A program made the position numbers and the translations under genes. A model generated the notes under the pieces. It saw only the letters and a program-made list of their open reading frames with translations. It ran no database searches and had not been told where the DNA came from. A DNA stretch of 33,356 nt from the sequence record SRR31156797_5293; one strand, 5' to 3'. This document shows, piece after piece, positions 24,419 through 33,356 of this stretch (the stretch's first letter is position 1; the number at the start of each line of letters is the position of its first letter).

Positions 24419-24466
24419 AAAAAAAATACCAATGAACAAACGATACGTCTGTTTCATTGGTATTTT
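24419..24466 (-). terminator. Intrinsic terminator of the glycan-synthesis operon
   Basis: AAAATACCAATGAA...TTCATTGGTATTTT arms with inner pairing and a T8 tail on the minus strand. Confidence 0.82.
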
Positions 24467-24513: not shown

Positions 24514-26343
24514 TTAACGCCCCAAAATCTCCGCCACCGAATATACGCCTGGGGCAAAGGTCTTGCCTGTTAGCTTCTTCGTCATGGCATTAAAGGTATA
24601 GTGCTCTTCTAAGACGACGACTTCATCGTATTGTTTTAGTAGCGTTCGAAAATCTGCATCTGATAAGAGGAAATTCTCTCGGCCATCGACATTGGGTGAA
24701 AACAAGTAATATTTGCCGACATAGCCAACTAAGTAGCTATCTACTGCTTCTTTGTTAGTACTGACCACCAAATATTTTTTCTCGTTTAGGTCAAAGTGAT
24801 CGCCAGTAACGGCTGAAACTTGTGCTGGAATCGAAGCAGCATATTCACGATTGGTATAACGCATGCCATTATTTTCTGAAAGGATCAGCAATGTCGCAAA
24901 AAATAACAGAATCAAGGTGCTGTACTGATAGATTTTTTTCGTGGTCAAGCTGGCAAAACTACGGTAGTTTCGCCGGTCGATTGCTTGTTCATGATACAAA
25001 TGATCAATGCCTCGGACCATGAAAAAGGTCATTAAGCCAAGTGCTAAAATCACGATGCTTGAGGCATAGCGATCGAACCCTGCCAAAGACAGTGCTTCAT
25101 CAGTGGGCATCGAGAACAAGAACATGGCATAGATTCCTAAATAATATCCCACAATGATACCATCGATCAACAGCAGTTCTTTTAAAAATGGATTGCGTTT
25201 TTTCATGATAAATCGGACAAATAGCCAACTGCCCAACAGGATGACCTGGATCAAGAGAATCCCTTGCGTGGAGATCGTCGCAATATCCGTGATGGTTTTG
25301 ACAAAAACATCCGTAATCTGCTGCAGTATCTGCGAATCCTTTTCACCAAAAATCTGTTTATAAGCGGTCACGCTGACTTCATGCTTCGATTTTGGAAAAT
25401 TCGCTTTGACATGCAAGTTCCAAAGAATCGCCGGCAGGACAGATAGCCCAATGGTAGCTAACCCTACAATCATCAATCCTAGTCGTTGTCGCCAACGAAT
25501 CGAAGCTTGCCATAAGCAGACTAGTAAATAGCCGCCTAAAATCAGCAGAAAAAAGACGGCGCTATTTTTGACCAAATCAAGAGAGGCACCAATCAAAAGA
25601 AAGTAGCTGATTGAAGGCAGCACTTTGCCTTTTAAGGAAAATAACCCGGCGATGCCTGCCAAAGTTAAAACGGGAAGAATGAAGTCTACCAGCAAATTAT
25701 TCATTCGAATCGCAATATTAAAATAATTGAATACGGCCATGCTGGTGAAGACCAAGACAAAAGCCAGCTTTCTTTTCGGATCACGAATAATCGCAAAAAA
25801 ACTATACAGACTACAGAAAATCAAAATCAATTGACCAATCAGCAAGACATTCTCATGATAGCCAACGATGATCGCTGTATAAGTAACAAATAGCGAGCTG
25901 CCTAAAGGATAGGAAGTAAAACTGATGATGGCATCGGCTGCCGTTGGCAATTGTCCCTGCGTATAAAGGAATTTAACGATCGTCGCCCAATGGGAGAAGT
26001 TGTCATAGTGGGTCAAATGACTGTGAAGCAATGTTAAAACGAACAAAGCAAAATAGCCGTAAAACCACAGCATGATGGGCTCTTGCAAGCCCCAATGCAC
26101 CTGATAGCGCTCCTGCCAAAAACGCCAAACGCATAATAGTAAGCCAAGACCAAATAAAACCCAGGCCCCCCAGATCAACCATCCTTTGGGACCATATGCG
26201 ACAAAGGAAAGAACGAGGATCGGCAAACAGCAAGCAGCGATCCAGCTGATGTGTTTAGGAAAATGGCAAACTCGTACAAAAAGATAGGCATAGCCAGCTA
26301 ATGATAAACCAAATAGACTAAATCGCAGCAGGATCTCGATCAT
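24514..26343 (-). CDS. Polytopic membrane protein, putative GT-C-fold glycosyltransferase
   Basis: 609 aa with more than 10 hydrophobic segments, a loop HYDNFSHWATIVK...SYPLG and a C-terminal soluble domain. Overlaps the synthase 3' end and has a GGAGG RBS. The ORF is solid; the function is inferred. Confidence 0.6.
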   Translation of the reverse strand: MIEILLRFSLFGLSLAGYAYLFVRVCHFPKHISWIAACCLPILVLSFVAYGPKGWLIWGAWVLFGLGLLLCVWRFWQERYQVHWGLQEPIMLWFYGYFALFVLTLLHSHLTHYDNFSHWATIVKFLYTQGQLPTAADAIISFTSYPLGSSLFVTYTAIIVGYHENVLLIGQLILIFCSLYSFFAIIRDPKRKLAFVLVFTSMAVFNYFNIAIRMNNLLVDFILPVLTLAGIAGLFSLKGKVLPSISYFLLIGASLDLVKNSAVFFLLILGGYLLVCLWQASIRWRQRLGLMIVGLATIGLSVLPAILWNLHVKANFPKSKHEVSVTAYKQIFGEKDSQILQQITDVFVKTITDIATISTQGILLIQVILLGSWLFVRFIMKKRNPFLKELLLIDGIIVGYYLGIYAMFLFSMPTDEALSLAGFDRYASSIVILALGLMTFFMVRGIDHLYHEQAIDRRNYRSFASLTTKKIYQYSTLILLFFATLLILSENNGMRYTNREYAASIPAQVSAVTGDHFDLNEKKYLVVSTNKEAVDSYLVGYVGKYYLFSPNVDGRENFLLSDADFRTLLKQYDEVVVLEEHYTFNAMTKKLTGKTFAPGVYSVAEILGR

Positions 26344-28573
26344 CGTCTGCCTCCTTTCTCAGCAAGCTGTCTACCCATTCTTGGAGGGCTACTGTGGAAC
26401 GCAGCTCTGAAAGATTGCTTACTTGATATATCACTTGATTTTCTTTTGGCTGAAGCGTCGCTTTTTCAGCGTGAAGCACAAGATTACTGATCGGTAAGTT
26501 TAGATGGACCGGCATCTCGACCTCCTCTGTTTTTGCCAACGTGAACTGATCAAAACCAAATATTGTGACCGCATAGGTTCCTTCATCAAAGTGCCATTTT
26601 TGATCAATGGTCAGTATGGGCACTCGTTGAGGCGGCAATGGCTTTTGTTTGGCTTGCAGCAGATGCTTACCGAGATTTTCAAAAAGACTGTCAAAGAAGG
26701 TCATCCACGGATCCCGCAGAACCGGCAGGCTTTGATTGAAGCCATCATAAATGATCTGCAGATAGGCTAAGTAATCTTTTTCTGTCAACTGGTTTAAAGC
26801 AACGCCATAGACCCAACGATCCTTGCCTGAAAAGACGCGGACAATATTTCCAGTCATCTCTGCTTGGTAGCCATTACGGGTGATTTTAAAAGTCAGCGGC
26901 GCATCTGGCGGAAAATAAAGAGGAACGTCAGAAACGAAGGACAAGCCATTTTCTGAGATATTTTCTGTCATCAAAGAATAGCTGGCGTCTTGGTCGGAAA
27001 CTTCAACAGGATAATGGGCTCTGAACCGTTCCGTCGTTCGATAAATCGGACGACCGAGATAAAATAAGACCGCAAAGGTTAAGTTAAAGAAATGGGTCAG
27101 CAGCCAAAAGGTCAACACACTGCCGTAGAAAATCTCTGAGCCGAATTTGCCGTAATTAAACTTCACTAAGCCGATAATCGTCAAAATCAACAGCAACAAA
27201 TGCGGCACCACAAACAACAAGTCTTTTTTAGACTGAGTTGCTGCTTTATTAGTCACCTTGAAGCGGGTCTCTTTGATGCCAATGGCTTGCAAAAAGACAG
27301 GAATCACTAGGTAAGGTGCAAAAATCGTTTCCTGGATCTCGCCCCAACGCTGCGTTCGAATATCACTGCTCAAATCCTGCATCGCCAAATGCAAGAACGT
27401 ATAGCTTGGCAGCCAAAACAGCAGCAAGACCCAAAAGTTTGTCTCTACGACCCTTACATTAAAGACGGTGTACAAAATCGGCGCGAAAATAAATAGTAGC
27501 CGTCGTAGAAACGACCACCAATACAAATAGCTGTTTAAGAAAACCATTTTTTGCGCCAAAGACAACGTCTTATTCTTAAAAAGATGGAGATTGTGGACAC
27601 TTTGGACCACTCCTCTTCCCCAGCGAATCCGCTGCTTTAAGGCACTTGGGATATCAATTGGAGACAGACCGCTGGCCATTGGCTGCAGTGTTGATAAACT
27701 GCGATAACCTTGGCAATTGATCAAGGCGCCTAATTCAAAATCTTCCGTGATCGTGTCCGTCGGAAATCCGCCAGCGGCTTCGATCGCTTCTCGTGCAATC
27801 ACCGTATTAGAACCTGTATAAATAGCGGTATCATGGGCGTTGTTCAAAACATTGACTTCTCTGGAAAAGAAGTCCTGCTCGTTAGGGATCGCCGCTTCTG
27901 AAAAAAGATTGTACTGAAAAAGATCCGCGTTGTAAAAACTTTGCGGTGTTTGAACAAAGCCCAACGGTTTGATGGTCTGGTCATTGCGGCGTTCCTGCTG
28001 ATTTGCCACAAAATATGGCACTGTTTCCAGCAAAAAATCTGAGTAAGGAATCATATCTGCATCAAAGGTCGCCACTAGCGGCGAATTGGTTTTTGATAAT
28101 GCATGATTGAGATTGCCTGACTTGGCATGCTGATTGCCGATCAATCCGATATAGCCGATGCCAAATTTATCTGCCAGTGCTTTGACCTCTGGACGGTTGG
28201 TGTCATCTGACAAATAGATGTGAACTTTTTTGGGATCGGGGTATTTCATATGAACTGCCGCATTGACCGTTTTTAATAAAAGCGGCACTTCTTCATTATG
28301 AGTAGCAATCAACACATCGATCGCCGGATAGTCGGCTTCTGGCACGACCGGTTTTTCAAAGGGCTTTGCTTTGTTTTTGTTCCAAATCAACAGCAAGCCC
28401 GTAAAGTTCGATACGATCTCACTGCCCCAAAGCAGCAAACCAAACAGCAAGGCAAACCAAGACTCGTGCCATGGCAATGTATACAGCCCCCGCCATGATA
28501 AATAGATCAGCGAAAAGACAAACGCCAGAAAGTAAACGACTTTTTTCGCCCAAGGCAAACGTTTTTGTTCCAC
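26318..28573 (-). CDS. bcsA: BcsA-like processive GT2 glycan synthase with C-terminal PilZ domain
   Basis: HAKSGNLN, FDAD, QTPQ, TED, QRIRW, gating loop FKVTNK; PilZ RTTER and NISENG. GTG 28573 is preferred as start (AAGGAG 8 nt upstream); the ORF track starts at 28582. Confidence 0.88.
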   Translation of the reverse strand: MEQKRLPWAKKVVYFLAFVFSLIYLSWRGLYTLPWHESWFALLFGLLLWGSEIVSNFTGLLLIWNKNKAKPFEKPVVPEADYPAIDVLIATHNEEVPLLLKTVNAAVHMKYPDPKKVHIYLSDDTNRPEVKALADKFGIGYIGLIGNQHAKSGNLNHALSKTNSPLVATFDADMIPYSDFLLETVPYFVANQQERRNDQTIKPLGFVQTPQSFYNADLFQYNLFSEAAIPNEQDFFSREVNVLNNAHDTAIYTGSNTVIAREAIEAAGGFPTDTITEDFELGALINCQGYRSLSTLQPMASGLSPIDIPSALKQRIRWGRGVVQSVHNLHLFKNKTLSLAQKMVFLNSYLYWWSFLRRLLFIFAPILYTVFNVRVVETNFWVLLLFWLPSYTFLHLAMQDLSSDIRTQRWGEIQETIFAPYLVIPVFLQAIGIKETRFKVTNKAATQSKKDLLFVVPHLLLLILTIIGLVKFNYGKFGSEIFYGSVLTFWLLTHFFNLTFAVLFYLGRPIYRTTERFRAHYPVEVSDQDASYSLMTENISENGLSFVSDVPLYFPPDAPLTFKITRNGYQAEMTGNIVRVFSGKDRWVYGVALNQLTEKDYLAYLQIIYDGFNQSLPVLRDPWMTFFDSLFENLGKHLLQAKQKPLPPQRVPILTIDQKWHFDEGTYAVTIFGFDQFTLAKTEEVEMPVHLNLPISNLVLHAEKATLQPKENQVIYQVSNLSELRSTVALQEWVDSLLRKEADDDRDPAAI

Positions 28574-28578
28574 CTCAA

Positions 28579-29619
28579 TCACTCCTTAAAGATGACATTT
28601 TTTTGCACATGGTAACTAAAGAAAAAGAGCAGGCAATCGACGCCTATTTTTAACAACACAGAATCTCCGATCGGTAGGATCAAATAAATCAGGTAGACGA
28701 GAAAAGAGGACAGCAAAATCTGTACGATCACCAATAAAAAATACTGCAGCATACTGTTCTTTGTCCGTTGACCAAAAACAAGCTCGCGATTGATGTAGTA
28801 ATTGACGATCGCCGAAATCAATCGGGCACCCAACGAAGCGATCACGATGGAGGACAGATTGATGACAGACAAGAAATGGATCAATAACGCATAAGCGATC
28901 ACATCGACAAAAAAGGAGACCACAGATGAAAACAAATACTTCAAAAAGACGCTATAGATAGCGACGGAATCTGCCAAGACCCGAAAATGGGAAGAGGCAT
29001 TTTCTTCAATATAGATGGTGGCGATCGGTTGCGAGAGAATCGGCCATCCCCGTTTCTGGGCTTCGATCAGCATCCGCGTTTCATATTCAAAGCGCTCACC
29101 TGAGATCGCCAACAAATCTGTCATGAATTTCCGAGGGAAAACCCTTAAGCCCGTCTGCGAATCCTCGATGGCAAGACCAGTCGCTAAACGTAGGATATTT
29201 CGGGTCAAAATGTTGCCGAACTTACTCCGCAAAGGCACTTCTTTGCCAAAGGATCGGGTCCCTAAAATAATACTGTCCGGATGGGCTTGGGCCTTTGCTA
29301 AGCAAGCCATCATATCGGTATACTCATGTTGCCCGTCCGAATCAATGGTCACCATAAATTCAACAGCTGGCTGGTTTGTCAGCACTTCAATGAGAGCGGT
29401 TTTGATGGCTGCGCCTTTTCCCTGATTCTTTGGATGGGTCAAAACCTGACAACCAAACTTCTGTTCCAATGCCGAAAAGACGGGCTGATAAGCTGCCCCA
29501 CTGCCATCATCCACGACCAAAATCGGCAGGTGCTGGTTATGCAAACGAATTTTCTCCACCAGAGCCAGCAGTTTGTGGTCCGGTTCTAGCGAAGGAATCA
29601 TGATTAAACTATTTTCCAT
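28579..29619 (-). CDS. Bifunctional GT2 (polyprenol-phosphate glycosyltransferase-like) / GtrA-family protein
   Basis: VVDDGS, NQGKGAA, DSDGQH, DSQTGLR, RFEYE, then a C-terminal 4-TM GtrA-like domain (NYYINRELVF). Confidence 0.88.
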   Translation of the reverse strand: MENSLIMIPSLEPDHKLLALVEKIRLHNQHLPILVVDDGSGAAYQPVFSALEQKFGCQVLTHPKNQGKGAAIKTALIEVLTNQPAVEFMVTIDSDGQHEYTDMMACLAKAQAHPDSIILGTRSFGKEVPLRSKFGNILTRNILRLATGLAIEDSQTGLRVFPRKFMTDLLAISGERFEYETRMLIEAQKRGWPILSQPIATIYIEENASSHFRVLADSVAIYSVFLKYLFSSVVSFFVDVIAYALLIHFLSVINLSSIVIASLGARLISAIVNYYINRELVFGQRTKNSMLQYFLLVIVQILLSSFLVYLIYLILPIGDSVLLKIGVDCLLFFFSYHVQKNVIFKE

Positions 29620-29679
29620 ATGCGCCCCTCATTTAAGGTAGTATTTTTGAAAATAAAAAAAGAAAAGAAGCCAACCCCA

Positions 29680-30732
29680 TCAGTAAAGACAGAGTTGGTC
29701 GCGACCGCTGCGCTTGGCTCGATACAATGCTTGATCGGCACGTTCTTGCGTTTGCTGTAGCAACTCACCCCTTTGCCGTTGTGCGATCCCAATCGACAAC
29801 GTGATGCTGACCGAATCACCGGCATCCAAGATGATTTCTTGGTAACGGATGCGCTTTTGAATTTTTTCAAGGAGATAAGCAGCAGCCTGTGCGTCTCCTT
29901 GGATCAAGATCGCAAACTCTTCCCCACCGATGCGATAGACCGGATTGCTCGCCGTACAGTAGGTCGAAAAAATACGAGCGATTTCTTGCAAAATCACATC
30001 CCCGGCACGGTGTCCGTAACGGTCATTGTAATTTTTGAAATGATCGATATCGATCAAAGCGATCGATAAGTCCACATCGGTCGTATCTAGGCGTTGGCGG
30101 TCATCTTGAAACTTACGGAAGTTATTCAACTGCGTAAGATCATCGATTTTGACCAATGCCAAAATGCGCTGCATATCATTTACTATCGAGTAAAGGAAAA
30201 ACGCCAACGTATAGGCGAGAATGCCATAAACTATATAAATTAGGGTCGTTTTTTGAATATCACCCGTCAAATAAAAACCAAAAAGAAAGGAGATAGCGAT
30301 CAAGTAGGTTATTGATAGGAACAACTCTTGTTTGTCAGTAAATCGCCGTTTGGCCCAGGCATGCAGAAATGTCAGTGTCACCATCAAAAAAAACGTAAGA
30401 TATAAGTTCAGCCAAGAAGATTTTGATACTTCAAACAAGAAACGCCCTAACGCTAGATTGACCATCGTCGGTACGGTCACCTTCCACCCCAGATATTTCA
30501 TGGAAAAAGCGTAAAGTAAAAAGCGCAGGTCAAATCGCGTTTCGTATACGACGTAAGAGAAATTCATCATCAGCATCCCCACCACGGTTTCACAAGCAAT
30601 CGCCGCTGCGATCTGTTTCGCTTTGAATGTCCCTTGACCTACGAAGCCATCACTGATTTTGAATAACAAATAAATATTGATGATAATTGCGCCTAAATTT
30701 GCGAGTGTATTGACAACCAGCGTATTTGCCAT
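29680..30732 (-). CDS. Membrane-anchored diguanylate cyclase (GGDEF domain)
   Basis: N-terminal 5-6 TM region with FDLRF; DDLTQLNN, DIDHFKNYNDRYGH, RIGGEEF, ADQALYRAK. Confidence 0.93.
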   Translation of the reverse strand: MANTLVVNTLANLGAIIINIYLLFKISDGFVGQGTFKAKQIAAAIACETVVGMLMMNFSYVVYETRFDLRFLLYAFSMKYLGWKVTVPTMVNLALGRFLFEVSKSSWLNLYLTFFLMVTLTFLHAWAKRRFTDKQELFLSITYLIAISFLFGFYLTGDIQKTTLIYIVYGILAYTLAFFLYSIVNDMQRILALVKIDDLTQLNNFRKFQDDRQRLDTTDVDLSIALIDIDHFKNYNDRYGHRAGDVILQEIARIFSTYCTASNPVYRIGGEEFAILIQGDAQAAAYLLEKIQKRIRYQEIILDAGDSVSITLSIGIAQRQRGELLQQTQERADQALYRAKRSGRDQLCLY

Positions 30733-30750
30733 TTCCTGTGCTTCCTTTCT

Positions 30751-30837
30751 AAAAAAAAGAACCCTTACTTGCTGATTCGACGGGACAATTCCAGAGACAT
30801 TTCATTGGAAAAGCGGACAAAGCATCAAGTAAGGATC
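30751..30837 (-). promoter_or_regulatory. Structured 5' leader / terminator-like hairpin directly before the cyclase RBS
   Basis: GAUCCUUACUUG / CAAGUAAGGGUU 12-bp stem (two G-U pairs, minus strand only), inner UUCCA/UGGAA stem, then C-U8 abutting AGAAAGGAAG. Confidence 0.55.
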
Positions 30838-31064
30838 ACTATTTATTATTGACAGTTTTTATCACTCTTGATTTAGAATAATTTACCAGAAATTATACAT
30901 AGTTTCAATCTTTTTGTTGATATGCGAAGATTCTCAAGATAAATAAAATAATCAAAATGTATATTTTGTAAATAAATAACATTATTTCTTTATTATTACT
31001 AACTTTTTGTGCATAAAAATTTAATTCTTTGTGAATTTGTGTAAATTATTTTTCCATTATTTTT

Positions 31065-32174
31065 TTACGTCTCAGGCAAGGTGCACACCCGATTTCGGCC
31101 ACTTTGTTTTGCGAGATAGAGTGCTTGATCGGCTCTTTCGACGGCTGCCAAGATATCCCCATGACAAACGGTGCTCGCTTCAACGCCGCAAGACAAAGAC
31201 ATCGTCCCTTTTTCAAAATTAGCCACAGGAAACATACTGCTGGAAATGGTTTGACACAGCGTCGTCATTGCAGCTACGGTCCGTTCTTTGACATCCCCTT
31301 CGATCACGAGACAGAACTCTTCGCCGCCATAACGATAAAAGGAATAGGTCTCGGCAAAATGCGCCTCTAAAAAAGTAGTCGTCCGTGAGGCAAAGGTTCT
31401 CAACAACTCATTTCCGGCGATATGACCATAACGGTCGTTGACCTTTTTGAAGTGATCGAGATCAATCATGGCGATCGTCACAGTCTTTTTCTGTGAAACG
31501 GCTTGAAGCAGATCCTGGTTATAGGTCCCATAGTTGAAGCAGCCGGTCAACGCATCGATCTTACTATTCGCCAGCTCTGCCAGTACTTGGTATTCTTGCC
31601 CCTCAATCAATCGATGCAACCACATAAAACTTCCTAGCAGCACGAAAGAACCAACAAATACTGCCAGCATAGCTTCCCAGTCATAGGTCGTCGTATGATG
31701 GACTAGCATCGAAAAACGCGGTGAGAGCAGGCAGGTCAAAAAATACATCATATAAAATTGCTGTTGCGGACGGATCAGCTTGACTTTTGATAAAAGAAAA
31801 TCAAGGACAAAGATCCCCACTCCGAATAATGGAAGATAAAAAGCTTTACCCACATCAGAAAAACCGACAAACCACAAATAAAAGACGACCATACACGGCG
31901 TTATCAAAATCAAGATCTTGCCACGATCACCATAGAAAAAATGACTCGCAATAAAAGCAGTTGTGTATTGATAACAGATAAACCCAACTGAATTCATTGA
32001 AAAAGAAAGAATAAAATACAAATGCGTAAACGTCAGAATACCAATAATAAAATACTTAAATGGACGAGAAACCGATATTTTTTGCACACTTCGTACAAAA
32101 ACATCTGCGGTCACCAGTAAACTGGCAATCATCAGCGGCAAACCAAACGCCAAAAGCACGCCTCGTTCTAACAT
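31065..32174 (-). CDS. Second membrane-anchored diguanylate cyclase (GGDEF domain)
   Basis: About 6 TM segments at the N-terminus; DALTGCFN, DLDHFKKVNDRYGH, RYGGEEF, ADQALYLAK. Start ATG 32174 is 4 nt after the EAL stop. Confidence 0.92.
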   Translation of the reverse strand: MLERGVLLAFGLPLMIASLLVTADVFVRSVQKISVSRPFKYFIIGILTFTHLYFILSFSMNSVGFICYQYTTAFIASHFFYGDRGKILILITPCMVVFYLWFVGFSDVGKAFYLPLFGVGIFVLDFLLSKVKLIRPQQQFYMMYFLTCLLSPRFSMLVHHTTTYDWEAMLAVFVGSFVLLGSFMWLHRLIEGQEYQVLAELANSKIDALTGCFNYGTYNQDLLQAVSQKKTVTIAMIDLDHFKKVNDRYGHIAGNELLRTFASRTTTFLEAHFAETYSFYRYGGEEFCLVIEGDVKERTVAAMTTLCQTISSSMFPVANFEKGTMSLSCGVEASTVCHGDILAAVERADQALYLAKQSGRNRVCTLPET

Positions 32175-32178
32175 TCCA

Positions 32179-32886
32179 TCACAATCGCTCTCCTTTAGAC
32201 CATAAATATCCTTGTTGCAAATGCACCCCCATCTCAAGCAACTGGACCATTTTTTCGCGGTTCTCGATCCCTTCAACGATCAGCTCAAGCTGATATTTTT
32301 GGGCAACCTTCAACCAACAAGCCAAAAAGCTGAAGCCAATCTCCTCATCAAGCTGAATAAACGGTAACAACGAAAATTTCAAACAATCAACGCTGGCAAG
32401 ATTGGCAAAGACCAACGAGAGGGTATTTTGTCCGCAACCGATATCATCGACCGCAATCACATAACCATAAGCTTTAATTTTTGCAATGGCTACAGACAAA
32501 TCAAATGACTCTTGCTGTATGCGTACGGGGTGTTCCGTCAATTCAATCTGCAACTGCGCCTTATAAACAGCCATCGTTTCAAAAAAGGACCACGTAGACT
32601 GCCACAGCAGCTGTTGTGGATGTATATTGACACTAAAGCGGGTTTCCGGCTTTTTTTTGCATAAACGCCGCAATTCCTTGGCATACCATCTCATCAATTG
32701 CTGATTGCCACTTTCAGTTTGAATCATTGTGCTGAATTCTTGCTGTGGAAATCGGTTGTTCTTCTCGCTACGTAGCAAGACTTCATAGCCATTCACCTCT
32801 TGCTGACTTAGCGATTTTACCTGCATGATTGGTTGACACAACAGATAAAGGCGGTCTGTGTTCTCCCAAGTCGTTTCATTTCCCAT
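32179..32886 (-). CDS. Stand-alone EAL-domain c-di-GMP phosphodiesterase
   Basis: QPI, YEVLLR, SVNI, IELTE, AVDDIGCG, LKFS, VEGIE, QGYLW. Start at ATG 32886 preferred. Confidence 0.92.
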   Translation of the reverse strand: MGNETTWENTDRLYLLCQPIMQVKSLSQQEVNGYEVLLRSEKNNRFPQQEFSTMIQTESGNQQLMRWYAKELRRLCKKKPETRFSVNIHPQQLLWQSTWSFFETMAVYKAQLQIELTEHPVRIQQESFDLSVAIAKIKAYGYVIAVDDIGCGQNTLSLVFANLASVDCLKFSLLPFIQLDEEIGFSFLACWLKVAQKYQLELIVEGIENREKMVQLLEMGVHLQQGYLWSKGERL

Positions 32887-33267: not shown

Positions 33268-33283
33268 CTACGTATCTCTTTGA

Positions 33284-33355
33284 CTGGGGTAGCTGGATTC
33301 GAACCAACGCATGACGGAGTCAAAGTCCGTTGCCTTACCGCTTGGCTATACCCCA
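33284..33355 (-). tRNA. trnQ: tRNA-Gln (anticodon TTG), CCA not encoded
   Basis: TGGGGTA/TACCCCA acceptor stem, D-arm GCCAAGCGGTAAGGC, anticodon arm ACGGA-CTTTGAC-TCCGT, T-loop GGTTCGAATCC. 72 nt. Confidence 0.97.
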
Positions 33356-33356
33356 A

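Follow-up and report, generated by a model that had tools for sequence, protein, structure and literature searches.

A BcsA-like PilZ synthase operon with a putative lipid-carrier glycosylation cassette in an Enterococcus casseliflavus-like genome

The window, i.e. the whole analysed stretch of 33,356 nucleotides (record SRR31156797_5293), comes from an Enterococcus casseliflavus-like genome. On its minus strand lies a trio of genes for a GT2-GtrA fusion, a BcsA-like synthase with a PilZ domain and a 609-aa polytopic protein (Table 1). For genome-wide searches, the genome of the window was represented by the closest available genome, G001, which is 100% complete and 100% identical over the locus.

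Table 1. Features of the locus, in the order in which they are read on the minus strand.
Feature	Positions	Strand	Evidence
EAL-domain c-di-GMP phosphodiesterase gene, 246 aa	32179..32919	-	Pfam EAL 9.6e-26
Membrane GGDEF protein, 403-aa ORF from the first start codon, GGEEF motif	31065..32276	-	Pfam GGDEF 3.7e-28
Attenuator-like long hairpin with U run, located in the leader of the gene for the diguanylate cyclase	30750..30836	-	Fold of 30733-30890: MFE -39.7 kcal/mol, z -2.9
Diguanylate cyclase, 350 aa: N-terminal membrane part and GGDEF domain with GGEEF	29680..30732	-	Pfam GGDEF 1.3e-33; NCBIfam GGDEF 1.6e-35
Terminator-like hairpin and T run that separate the genes for the cyclase and for GT2-GtrA	29650..29698	-	Consensus scan
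GT2-GtrA fusion, 346 aa; candidate DPMS-type polyprenyl-phosphate sugar synthase, four C-terminal helices	28579..29619	-	
Processive GT2 synthase, BcsA-like and carrying a PilZ domain, 754 aa; more likely to start at 28573	26318..28582	-	Matches E. coli BcsA 9b8v
GT-C fold glycosyltransferase, 609 aa (by modelled fold): three extra N-terminal helices, 11-helix core, outer C-terminal alpha/beta domain	24514..26343	-	
Intrinsic terminator closing the unit, long stem and T8	~24419..24464	-	

Judging by their junctions, the three genes are translationally coupled. The stop codon of the GT2-GtrA gene (TGA, 28579–28581) overlaps the earliest GTG in the reading frame of the synthase (28582), but a second GTG at 28573, with AAGGAG 8 nt upstream, is the likelier start. 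The GT-C gene begins with an ATG at 26343, preceded by AAAGGAGG, and shares 26 nt with the end of the gene for the synthase (TAG, 26318–26320). An earlier note on this DNA had described both junctions, as well as the closure of the operon by a terminator, and these descriptions hold.

Downstream of the unit follow a PRD/EIIA regulator and PTS genes. Upstream of the trio, two GGDEF genes and an EAL gene, on which the earlier note had not remarked, continue the unit. The leader hairpin of the cyclase gene is without an Rfam family: a search of positions 29550–31120 at E ≤ 1 returned solely a chance snoRNA match, and tRNA alone was matched at the gathering threshold.

Eighteen runs labelled as RNA (ant metatranscriptomes) contain about 60% of the sampled words, and four of them hold single contigs of 5.6–6.9 kb that cover the locus from the GT-C gene to the cyclase gene at about 98% identity. 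We rejected these contigs as evidence for transcription or for a single transcript, since contigs of 66–142 kb in the same runs indicate that DNA is probably present.

The synthase matches GT2 families (PF13632, 1.4e-15), PilZ (4e-11, residues 515–604) and Cellulose_synt (2.2e-6) in Pfam, and its residues 15–552 align with E. coli BcsA (9b8v) at 1.1e-61. It carries TED, QRIRW, FDAD, HAKSGNLN, RTTER and NISENG, which include the catalytic D,D,D,QxxRW motifs of BcsA and the RxxxR and D/NxSxxG motifs of PilZ; the latter two are retained in 57 of 61 orthologues. Its scores lie below the cut-offs of the curated BcsA models (327.6 vs 699.1 bits for TIGR03030 and 267.1 vs 992 for PRK11498). The product would probably be a beta-glucan, either cellulose or a mixed-linkage polymer.

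[quoted passage not shown] It differs from them in that IYTGS replaces FFCGS, the protein runs on for about 145 further residues after the PilZ domain, and the locus is without BcsB, BcsZ and BcsC. In line with the earlier note, a Pfam search found no BcsB, glucanase, BcsG or acyltransferase domains in the unit. BcsB gave 0 matches in G001, and no such family is conserved across the 65 loci considered below.

The note had pointed to the missing BcsB. However, this is not unusual among such Firmicute synthases. RiGT2 of Romboutsia ilealis, a BcsA-like (1,3;1,4)-beta-glucan synthase with a PilZ domain and no bcsB nearby, is reported to function without a partner, making its polymer alone in yeast (PMC10374906). 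Compared by motifs, its layout resembles that of the locus synthase (DAD, FxVTxK, RTxER, NxSExG), but the available part of that report mentions no GT-C or GtrA partner, unlike our locus. The clostridial ccsZABHI system (PMC7710045) likewise combines a Gram-positive PilZ synthase with polymer-modification genes; its partners, namely the CBM11-like CcsB, a GH5 hydrolase and an MBOAT/DHHW acetylation pair, are all absent from the locus.

The 346-aa protein encoded upstream joins a Glycos_transf_2 domain (2.9e-11, residues 17–132) to GtrA_DPMS_TM (2e-8, residues 227–344). In a fold search, its model resembled the Pyrococcus DPMS-type polyprenyl-phosphate sugar synthase. The architecture is common to the fusion and the dolichyl-phosphate mannose synthase of Pyrococcus furiosus (5mlz) at an identity of 16%, and the same four helices form the membrane domain in both; a phmmer search of PDB sequences gave 0 matches. 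As modelled, the fusion belongs to the polyprenyl-phosphate sugar synthase type of membrane-linked GT-A enzymes. Its GtrA-like helices would anchor the enzyme and may also have a role in flipping the lipid-linked sugar. Elsewhere, G001 carries a separate GtrA gene of 154 aa.

The 609-aa protein matches neither a Pfam nor an NCBIfam family. Nevertheless, the first 27 rows of a Foldseek search with its model (pLDDT 87.6) were all GT-C enzymes (PglB, ArnT, AftA, OST, ALG12, Emb, DPY19, PMT), which places the modelled protein in the superfamily defined by the polytopic fold common to ArnT, PglB/STT3, PMT, ALG and Emb/Aft. Neither a transporter fold nor a BcsB-like one, which the earlier note had named as contrary outcomes, was seen. 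The label 'lantibiotic ABC transporter permease', found on some homologue records, is excluded by the GT-C fold.

The protein stays below the cut-off of the ArnT-like PMT_2 family (PF13231), which 5 of 35 family members match weakly (best E 7.7e-7). When PDB sequences were searched with a profile made from the GT-C alignment, no meaningful match came up (best match a 14-3-3 protein, E 0.33). The family comprises 3472 cluster representatives at E ≤ 1e-3 and is without a Pfam model of its own. Its nearest clusters in the ESM Atlas, which serve as a lead only, are unnamed or called 'ArnT family', and none shows a common Pfam family.

The acidic-loop motifs singled out by the earlier note, HYDNFSHW (residues 112–119) and SYPLG, are present. 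None of 35 homologues has a substitution at H112, D114, N115, W119, Y145 or P146, and the same columns are kept in 85–86 of the 86 GT-C ORFs from the 65 loci; D114 (HYDN) and D220 (NNLLVD) are found in 86/86 sequences. In the topology derived from the model helices, both aspartates lie outside and the positive-inside rule is obeyed (14 K+R vs 5 D+E in the short inner loops). Thus, the model bears out the predicted GT-C fold with a conserved Asp in the outer loop after the first core helix. If the VIA alignment is ungapped there, D114 corresponds to residue 55 of ArnT, which we take to be catalytic. Indirectly, and by analogy, the linked DPMS/GtrB-like gene points to a polyprenyl-phosphate-linked sugar as the predicted donor.

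The GT-C gene occupies the position of bcsB, right after the synthase gene and coupled to it, and BcsB is absent from G001. The 609-aa protein might therefore be mainly a structural partner that replaces BcsB in guiding the chain, its GT-C catalysis having been lost or become secondary. However, the acidic and basic residues of its outer loops are invariant in 85–86 of 86 sequences, as for an active enzyme, a dedicated donor-making enzyme accompanies it, and the synthase also exists without it. We consider such a structural role very unlikely. A complex prediction for synthase residues 1–508 and GT-C residues 1–492 scored 0.00 in two runs, with alignments unused and controls unfolded, and has no bearing on binding.

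Linkage was studied in the 65 loci, all of which come from named genomes. In 62 of them, the distance from the GT-C gene to the synthase is at most 600 nt, and in one more it is 654 nt; the two loci without a linked synthase are contigs of 2.9 and 5.6 kb. GT2-GtrA is found within 4 kb in 55 loci. Four of the other ten give no information, as their contigs are too short or break off at the synthase gene, and GT2-GtrA is absent from the locus DNA examined in L021, L022, L025, L048, L058 and L062. Five genomes with such a GT2-GtrA-less locus each have a match elsewhere, one of them fragmentary and weak. In several loci the gene order is permuted and the trio is still together.

In a sample of 401 Lactobacillales genomes, a close GT-C was found in 28. 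In 27 of these it is accompanied by a close synthase, adjacent in every case; the single exception carries a GT-C pseudogene. The co-occurrence of the three genes, anticipated in the earlier note, is therefore seen well beyond the window. Around the trio, conservation in the 65 loci extends to just two further families, GGDEF (15 loci) and EAL (8 loci). An aldo/keto reductase encoded 3′ of the GT-C gene was rejected as a member of the system, as it occurs in 6 loci only and on mixed strands. This synteny shows a joint function rather than a particular acceptor, and it makes the synthase product the candidate acceptor.

The cassette and the synthase also occur apart. In five of six paralogue loci examined, where the GT-C is 25–31% identical, it is paired with a GT2-GtrA homologue (39–50% identity), and the synthase is absent from all six. 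The pairs adjoin rmlABCD and a flippase, or PgfS/PgfM-like genes, or sit among nonulosonic-acid genes. Conversely, all four genomes of one genus keep the cyclase and the synthase with no close GT-C; in the two loci examined there, the synthase is 59–60% identical and GT2-GtrA is likewise absent. Polymer synthesis as such can thus do without the cassette. Together, the synthase-free pairs and the synthase without partners lead us to regard the two genes as an accessory cassette for decoration that was recruited to a polymer made by a synthase and activated by c-di-GMP.

In a tree with 7 unlinked GT-C proteins, the 86 that are synthase-linked group together as a single clade. The distant paralogues align only to residues ~1–450, which makes the C-terminal outer part specific to the synthase-linked clade. 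These results bear on the possibility that the target of the GT2-GtrA/GT-C pair is another envelope polymer (lipoteichoic acid, wall teichoic acid or a rhamnopolysaccharide) and that co-transcription with the synthase serves only to let surface and matrix shift together under c-di-GMP. All characterised Gram-positive acceptors of such systems are reported to be cell-wall polymers (PMC8035078), and distant paralogues of both genes do lie in rhamnose and Pgf-type clusters. Nevertheless, we hold this to be unlikely: the synthase-linked proteins have their own clade and outer part, GT-C adjoins the synthase in 63 of 65 loci, which represent many different genera and gene orders, and a close GT-C without a synthase was met just once in 401 genomes, as a pseudogene.

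The earlier note had also raised priming or anchoring. In that case GT-C would make no branches; it would either attach the chain, or the residue with which it starts, to an acceptor in lipid or wall, or provide a starter that is lipid-linked. To our knowledge, GT-C enzymes transfer from a lipid donor to an acceptor and none attaches finished synthase-made chains, which argues against this role. So do the intact synthases of the genus mentioned above, which at 59% identity stand with a cyclase only, as well as the reported activity of RiGT2 alone in yeast (PMC10374906). Even though some atypical streptococcal capsule synthases are described as beginning on a lipid (PMC8892547), priming or anchoring seems to us quite improbable here.

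The earlier note had proposed an undescribed system. [quoted passage not shown] The same four gene families stand in the window in the same order, adjacent and co-oriented; the window differs from the published module in its second GGDEF gene, its EAL gene and its genomic site. In S. equinus ATCC 9812 we found each of the four represented by a homologue at the published place, between trmB and rimP, with a GT-C protein 39% identical to that of the window. As far as the citing review shows, the last protein has been named just a 16-helix membrane protein, with no GT-C assignment or decoration model, and in 2026 the group behind the module still called the product of the streptococcal enzyme open (PMC13609730).

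Close parallels are also offered by the three-component systems CsbB/GtcA/YfhO, GtlA/GtcA/GtlB, CsdAB-CD-EF/CflA and GacI/J/K/L, which likewise combine a membrane-bound GT-A, a GtrA-type module and a polytopic GT-C with an acidic outer-loop motif. External glycosylation of LTA, WTA, rhamnan and LPS is described there as the work of a membrane-linked GT-A making C55-P-sugar, a flippase and a GT-C, and the acceptors listed are LTA, WTA, secondary wall polysaccharides and LPS (PMC8035078, in the part available). In contrast, the GT-A and GtrA-type parts of the locus form one polypeptide with DPMS architecture, its GT-C family is without a Pfam model, and the linked polymer gene encodes a processive synthase that needs no lipid carrier.

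From the folds, motifs, gene coupling and synteny observed, we infer the donor lipid, sugar, acceptor and polymer. With somewhat more belief than doubt, we read the locus as a c-di-GMP-controlled machine for a synthase-dependent exopolysaccharide with a built-in outer decoration cassette; a lipid-delivered sugar added to the synthase product would be the best reading of its genes. Two GGDEF cyclases and the EAL phosphodiesterase would set the level of c-di-GMP, which would bind the PilZ domain of the BcsA-like synthase. The synthase would polymerise a nucleotide-sugar unit and thread the chain through its own membrane channel, with no BcsB partner. At the inner face, GT2-GtrA would load one sugar onto undecaprenyl phosphate, and at the outer face the GT-C enzyme would move it onto the emerging chain via Asp114 in the first outer loop, so that a polymer with comb-like branches would result.

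Synthase-dependent polymers, made without a lipid carrier, are conventionally separated from glycans that are built or decorated on undecaprenyl phosphate. The modifications of cellulose-type polymers known to us are phosphoethanolamine and acetyl groups. If the proposed reading is true, a conserved operon joins both pathways, glycosylation is added to these modifications, and the large unnamed GT-C family (3472 cluster representatives) gains a function. It would also imply a testable matrix polymer in enterococci, bovis-group streptococci, carnobacteria, leuconostocs, pediococci and plant-associated lactobacilli, carriers that matter to the food, gut and veterinary fields. The locus suggests a branched slime polymer of a kind so far undescribed.

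[quoted passage not shown] Many Lactobacillaceae, among them Lactiplantibacillus, Levilactobacillus and Companilactobacillus, would then use two GT-Cs from an ancient duplication to add two different branches. If so, lactic acid bacteria would make comb-like beta-glucans that have so far not been sought.

GGDEF/EAL genes and a PilZ synthase of E. casseliflavus were noted as early as 2012 (PMC3374389). The c-di-GMP circuit is very small: G001 has three GGDEF domains and a single PilZ domain, its only PilZ match being the synthase of the locus, and the EAL gene lies beside the cluster.

The three open reading frames on which the earlier note rested are real, all lie on the minus strand, and its observation that they form a unit was confirmed. 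The genes are coupled: the stop codon of the GT2-GtrA fusion gene overlaps the synthase start or directly precedes it, and the start codon of the GT-C gene, which follows a strong ribosome-binding site, overlaps the 3′ end of the synthase gene by 26 nt. The unit closes with a long hairpin and a T run, and genes for a GGDEF cyclase, a second GGDEF protein and an EAL protein lie upstream of the trio on the same strand. The remaining genes of the window (PTS, rhamnose catabolism, glycosidase) are unrelated to it. Judging by sequence, the window is close to Enterococcus casseliflavus: its GT-C protein is 97% identical to the counterpart in strain NBRC 100478, and its locus is 100% identical to that of G001, the nearest genome available.

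Features of the trio and its surroundings
Feature	Position	Strand	Description
GT2-GtrA fusion, 346 aa	28579-29619	-	ORF; Pfam Glycos_transf_2 and GtrA_DPMS_TM
Synthase, 754 aa	26318-28582	-	ORF; Pfam GT2 synthase families, Cellulose_synt, PilZ domain
Synthase part past PilZ, residues about 610-754	26318-26755	-	about 145 residues, no Pfam match
GT-C protein, 609 aa	24514-26343	-	ORF; no Pfam match
End of unit	about 24419-24464		long hairpin, T run
Hairpin straddling cyclase stop	29650-29698	-	terminator-like, T run; 60 nt before GT2-GtrA start
Cyclase leader hairpin	30750-30836	-	long hairpin, then eight U; MFE -39.7 kcal/mol, z -2.9
tRNA-Gln gene	33282-33356	-	window edge, upstream of EAL gene

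The hairpin in the diguanylate cyclase leader resembles an attenuator or the terminator of an unknown riboswitch, and an Rfam search with it returned no family match. Control of the cyclase may be separate from that of the three biosynthetic genes.

A sequence search with the 609-aa protein found 589 relatives, mostly unnamed, and 35 of them were aligned as input for AlphaFold2. The resulting model is confident (pLDDT 87.6, pTM 0.89), and the first 27 Foldseek rows were all GT-C enzyme entries, with the next row at probability 0.15. By its modelled fold the protein is thus a GT-C glycosyltransferase, as the earlier note had predicted. The label "lantibiotic ABC transporter permease" or "ABC transporter permease" on eight homologues (P0016, P0049, P0050, P0059, P0078, P0116, P0118 and P0122) is, given this fold, a propagated misannotation. 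Pfam lacks a model for this family, and of 35 members only 5 touch PMT_2. The family is large all the same, with 3472 cluster representatives at E<=1e-3 and 879 at E<=1e-30.

The GT-C core starts near residue 84, so that three helices (2-24, 30-48 and 55-77) are extra. The topology was derived from the model helices, with 113-129 and 147-160 read as interface helices of the first outer loop. It places the N-terminus and a C-terminal alpha/beta domain (about 505-609) outside, with 14 membrane passes; the short inner loops hold 14 K+R versus 5 D+E. HYDN (D114), NNLLVD (D220), K259, K320-H321, E416 and R425-Y426 face outward, and these numbered residues are invariant in 85-86 of the 86 ORFs from 65 loci.

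Scanning one genome per species yielded 417 relatives of the GT-C protein, and 65 loci were retained. The distance from the synthase to a GT-C gene is at most 600 nt in 62 of them and 654 nt in a further one; the two loci with no synthase nearby are contigs of 2.9 and 5.6 kb. GT2-GtrA is found within 4 kb in 55 of the 65. The ten others comprise two short contigs, two loci with the synthase at a contig edge (L017, L060) and six with no such gene in the locus DNA; five genomes with a locus of this kind have a match elsewhere, and one match (G403) is weak and in fragments. Several loci have the three genes in a different order, and one has them divided between the two strands. Across the 65 loci, the only families recurring around the trio are GGDEF (15 loci) and EAL (8 loci); hydrolases, BcsB-like genes and acyltransferases do not recur.

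We also drew an even sample of 401 Lactobacillales genomes, with tiers read off the score tables ("close" meaning 560 bits or more for a GT-C and 875 bits or more for a synthase). A close GT-C occurs in 28 genomes and a close synthase in 31. Both occur in 27, always adjacent, a few of the GT-C genes having internal stops; the sole GT-C gene without a synthase carries five stops and is a pseudogene. The predicted co-occurrence of the three genes therefore held (63 of 65 loci for the synthase, 55 of 65 for GT2-GtrA, 27 of 28 sampled GT-C genomes). The four synthases lacking a GT-C all belong to one genus, from the family of G001, and account for each of its four sampled genomes. At two loci inspected there (L079 and L084, from G324 and G053), a cyclase and a synthase (59-60% identical) stand alone, with no GT2-GtrA, and in one of the two the synthase gene is broken by a stop.

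Residues 15-552 of the synthase align to E. coli BcsA (1.1e-61) and keep the motifs HAKxGNxN, FDxD, QTPxxF, TED and QRIRW; its PilZ domain carries RTTER and NISENG. The nearest NCBIfam model is the UDP-forming cellulose synthase, at a score far below the cut-off (327.6 versus 699.1 bits). The part past PilZ is present in orthologues of enterococci, carnobacteria and streptococci (about 730-770 aa) and missing from most of those in Lactobacillaceae (about 650-700 aa). Both PilZ motifs are kept in 57 of 61 orthologues. The RxxxR and D/NxSxxG pair is missing in three Leuconostoc (L024, L032, L068) and one Lapidilactobacillus (L048), which suggests that the trio may run without c-di-GMP control there. 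Most Lactobacillaceae loci keep the motifs with no GGDEF gene nearby. The G001 genome has three GGDEF matches, a single PilZ match, namely the window-type synthase, and no match in a BcsB search.

The fusion is a DPMS-type enzyme. Its nearest NCBIfam model is the polyprenyl-phospho-GalNAc synthase PpgS, below cut-off. Its "GtrA" part is the membrane domain typical of such synthases; a flippase role is possible. G001 also has a separate 154-aa GtrA-family gene (C77:101982-102335, L071), which is presumably part of a different glycosylation system and could serve the trio too.

In our preferred reading, c-di-GMP activates the synthase and its exported chain would be glycosylated outside the membrane by the GT-C protein, with an undecaprenyl-phosphate sugar made by the fusion as donor; we infer the acceptor, sugar, lipid and backbone. 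Such an external route is already known to act on teichoic acids, rhamnan and LPS (PMC8035078).

We read the GT2-GtrA/GT-C pair as a cassette. In six loci of lower-scoring GT-C relatives (25-31% identity), the synthase is absent from all six and a GT2-GtrA homologue (39-50% identity) is paired in five. Two paired loci adjoin rmlD-B-C-A, and for one of these a neighbouring MOP flippase was confirmed as well; another two adjoin PgfS/PgfM1-like glycosyltransferases, and the fifth belongs to a cluster that includes PseF/G- and NeuB-like genes, GT2 genes and a deacetylase. These relatives align to about residues 1-450 alone, which makes the outer C-terminal part specific to the synthase-linked clade, as might be expected if it recognises the acceptor. 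The pair might act on an acceptor other than the synthase product, but the clade structure of the GT-C proteins and the strict adjacency to the synthase speak against this. Alternatively, the pair could prime or anchor the polymer, or the 609-aa protein could be a purely structural partner. The stand-alone synthases argue against both priming and an obligate partner, as does Romboutsia RiGT2, which is active alone in yeast (PMC10374906).

Tandem GT-C genes occur in 21 loci, all Lactobacillaceae (L026, L029, L030, L038, L044 and 16 others): two full-length copies follow the synthase gene, each retaining HYDN and the rest of the invariant residues. The duplication is old, since the first copies and the second copies fall into separate clades.

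The gene set is already known, and its last member was previously without assignment. Palmer 2012 reported two GGDEF genes and one EAL gene 5′ to a PilZ synthase in E. casseliflavus, and the available portions mention neither partner gene (PMC3374389). Römling 2023 summarises the streptococcal module of Liu 2020 (PMC10333796); we found this arrangement again in S. equinus, and the window unit is thus the same module. The "16 predicted helices" given in the literature for its last protein would be explained by the 14 modelled passes and two interface helices. In 2026 the laboratory behind Liu 2020 still treated the product as open (PMC13609730). Our literature searches, works citing Liu 2020 included, turned up no GT-C fold assignment and no proposal that a synthase-made polymer is decorated; Liu 2020 itself may contain more. 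The L. acidophilus gts operon (PMC6123363) and clostridial ccsZABHI (PMC7710045) are different systems. We read the unit as a probable link between a synthase-dependent polymer and a three-component glycosylation route. A tRNA-Ser locus is the reported site of the streptococcal module; this and the tRNA-Gln gene of the window may both mark insertion by horizontal transfer.
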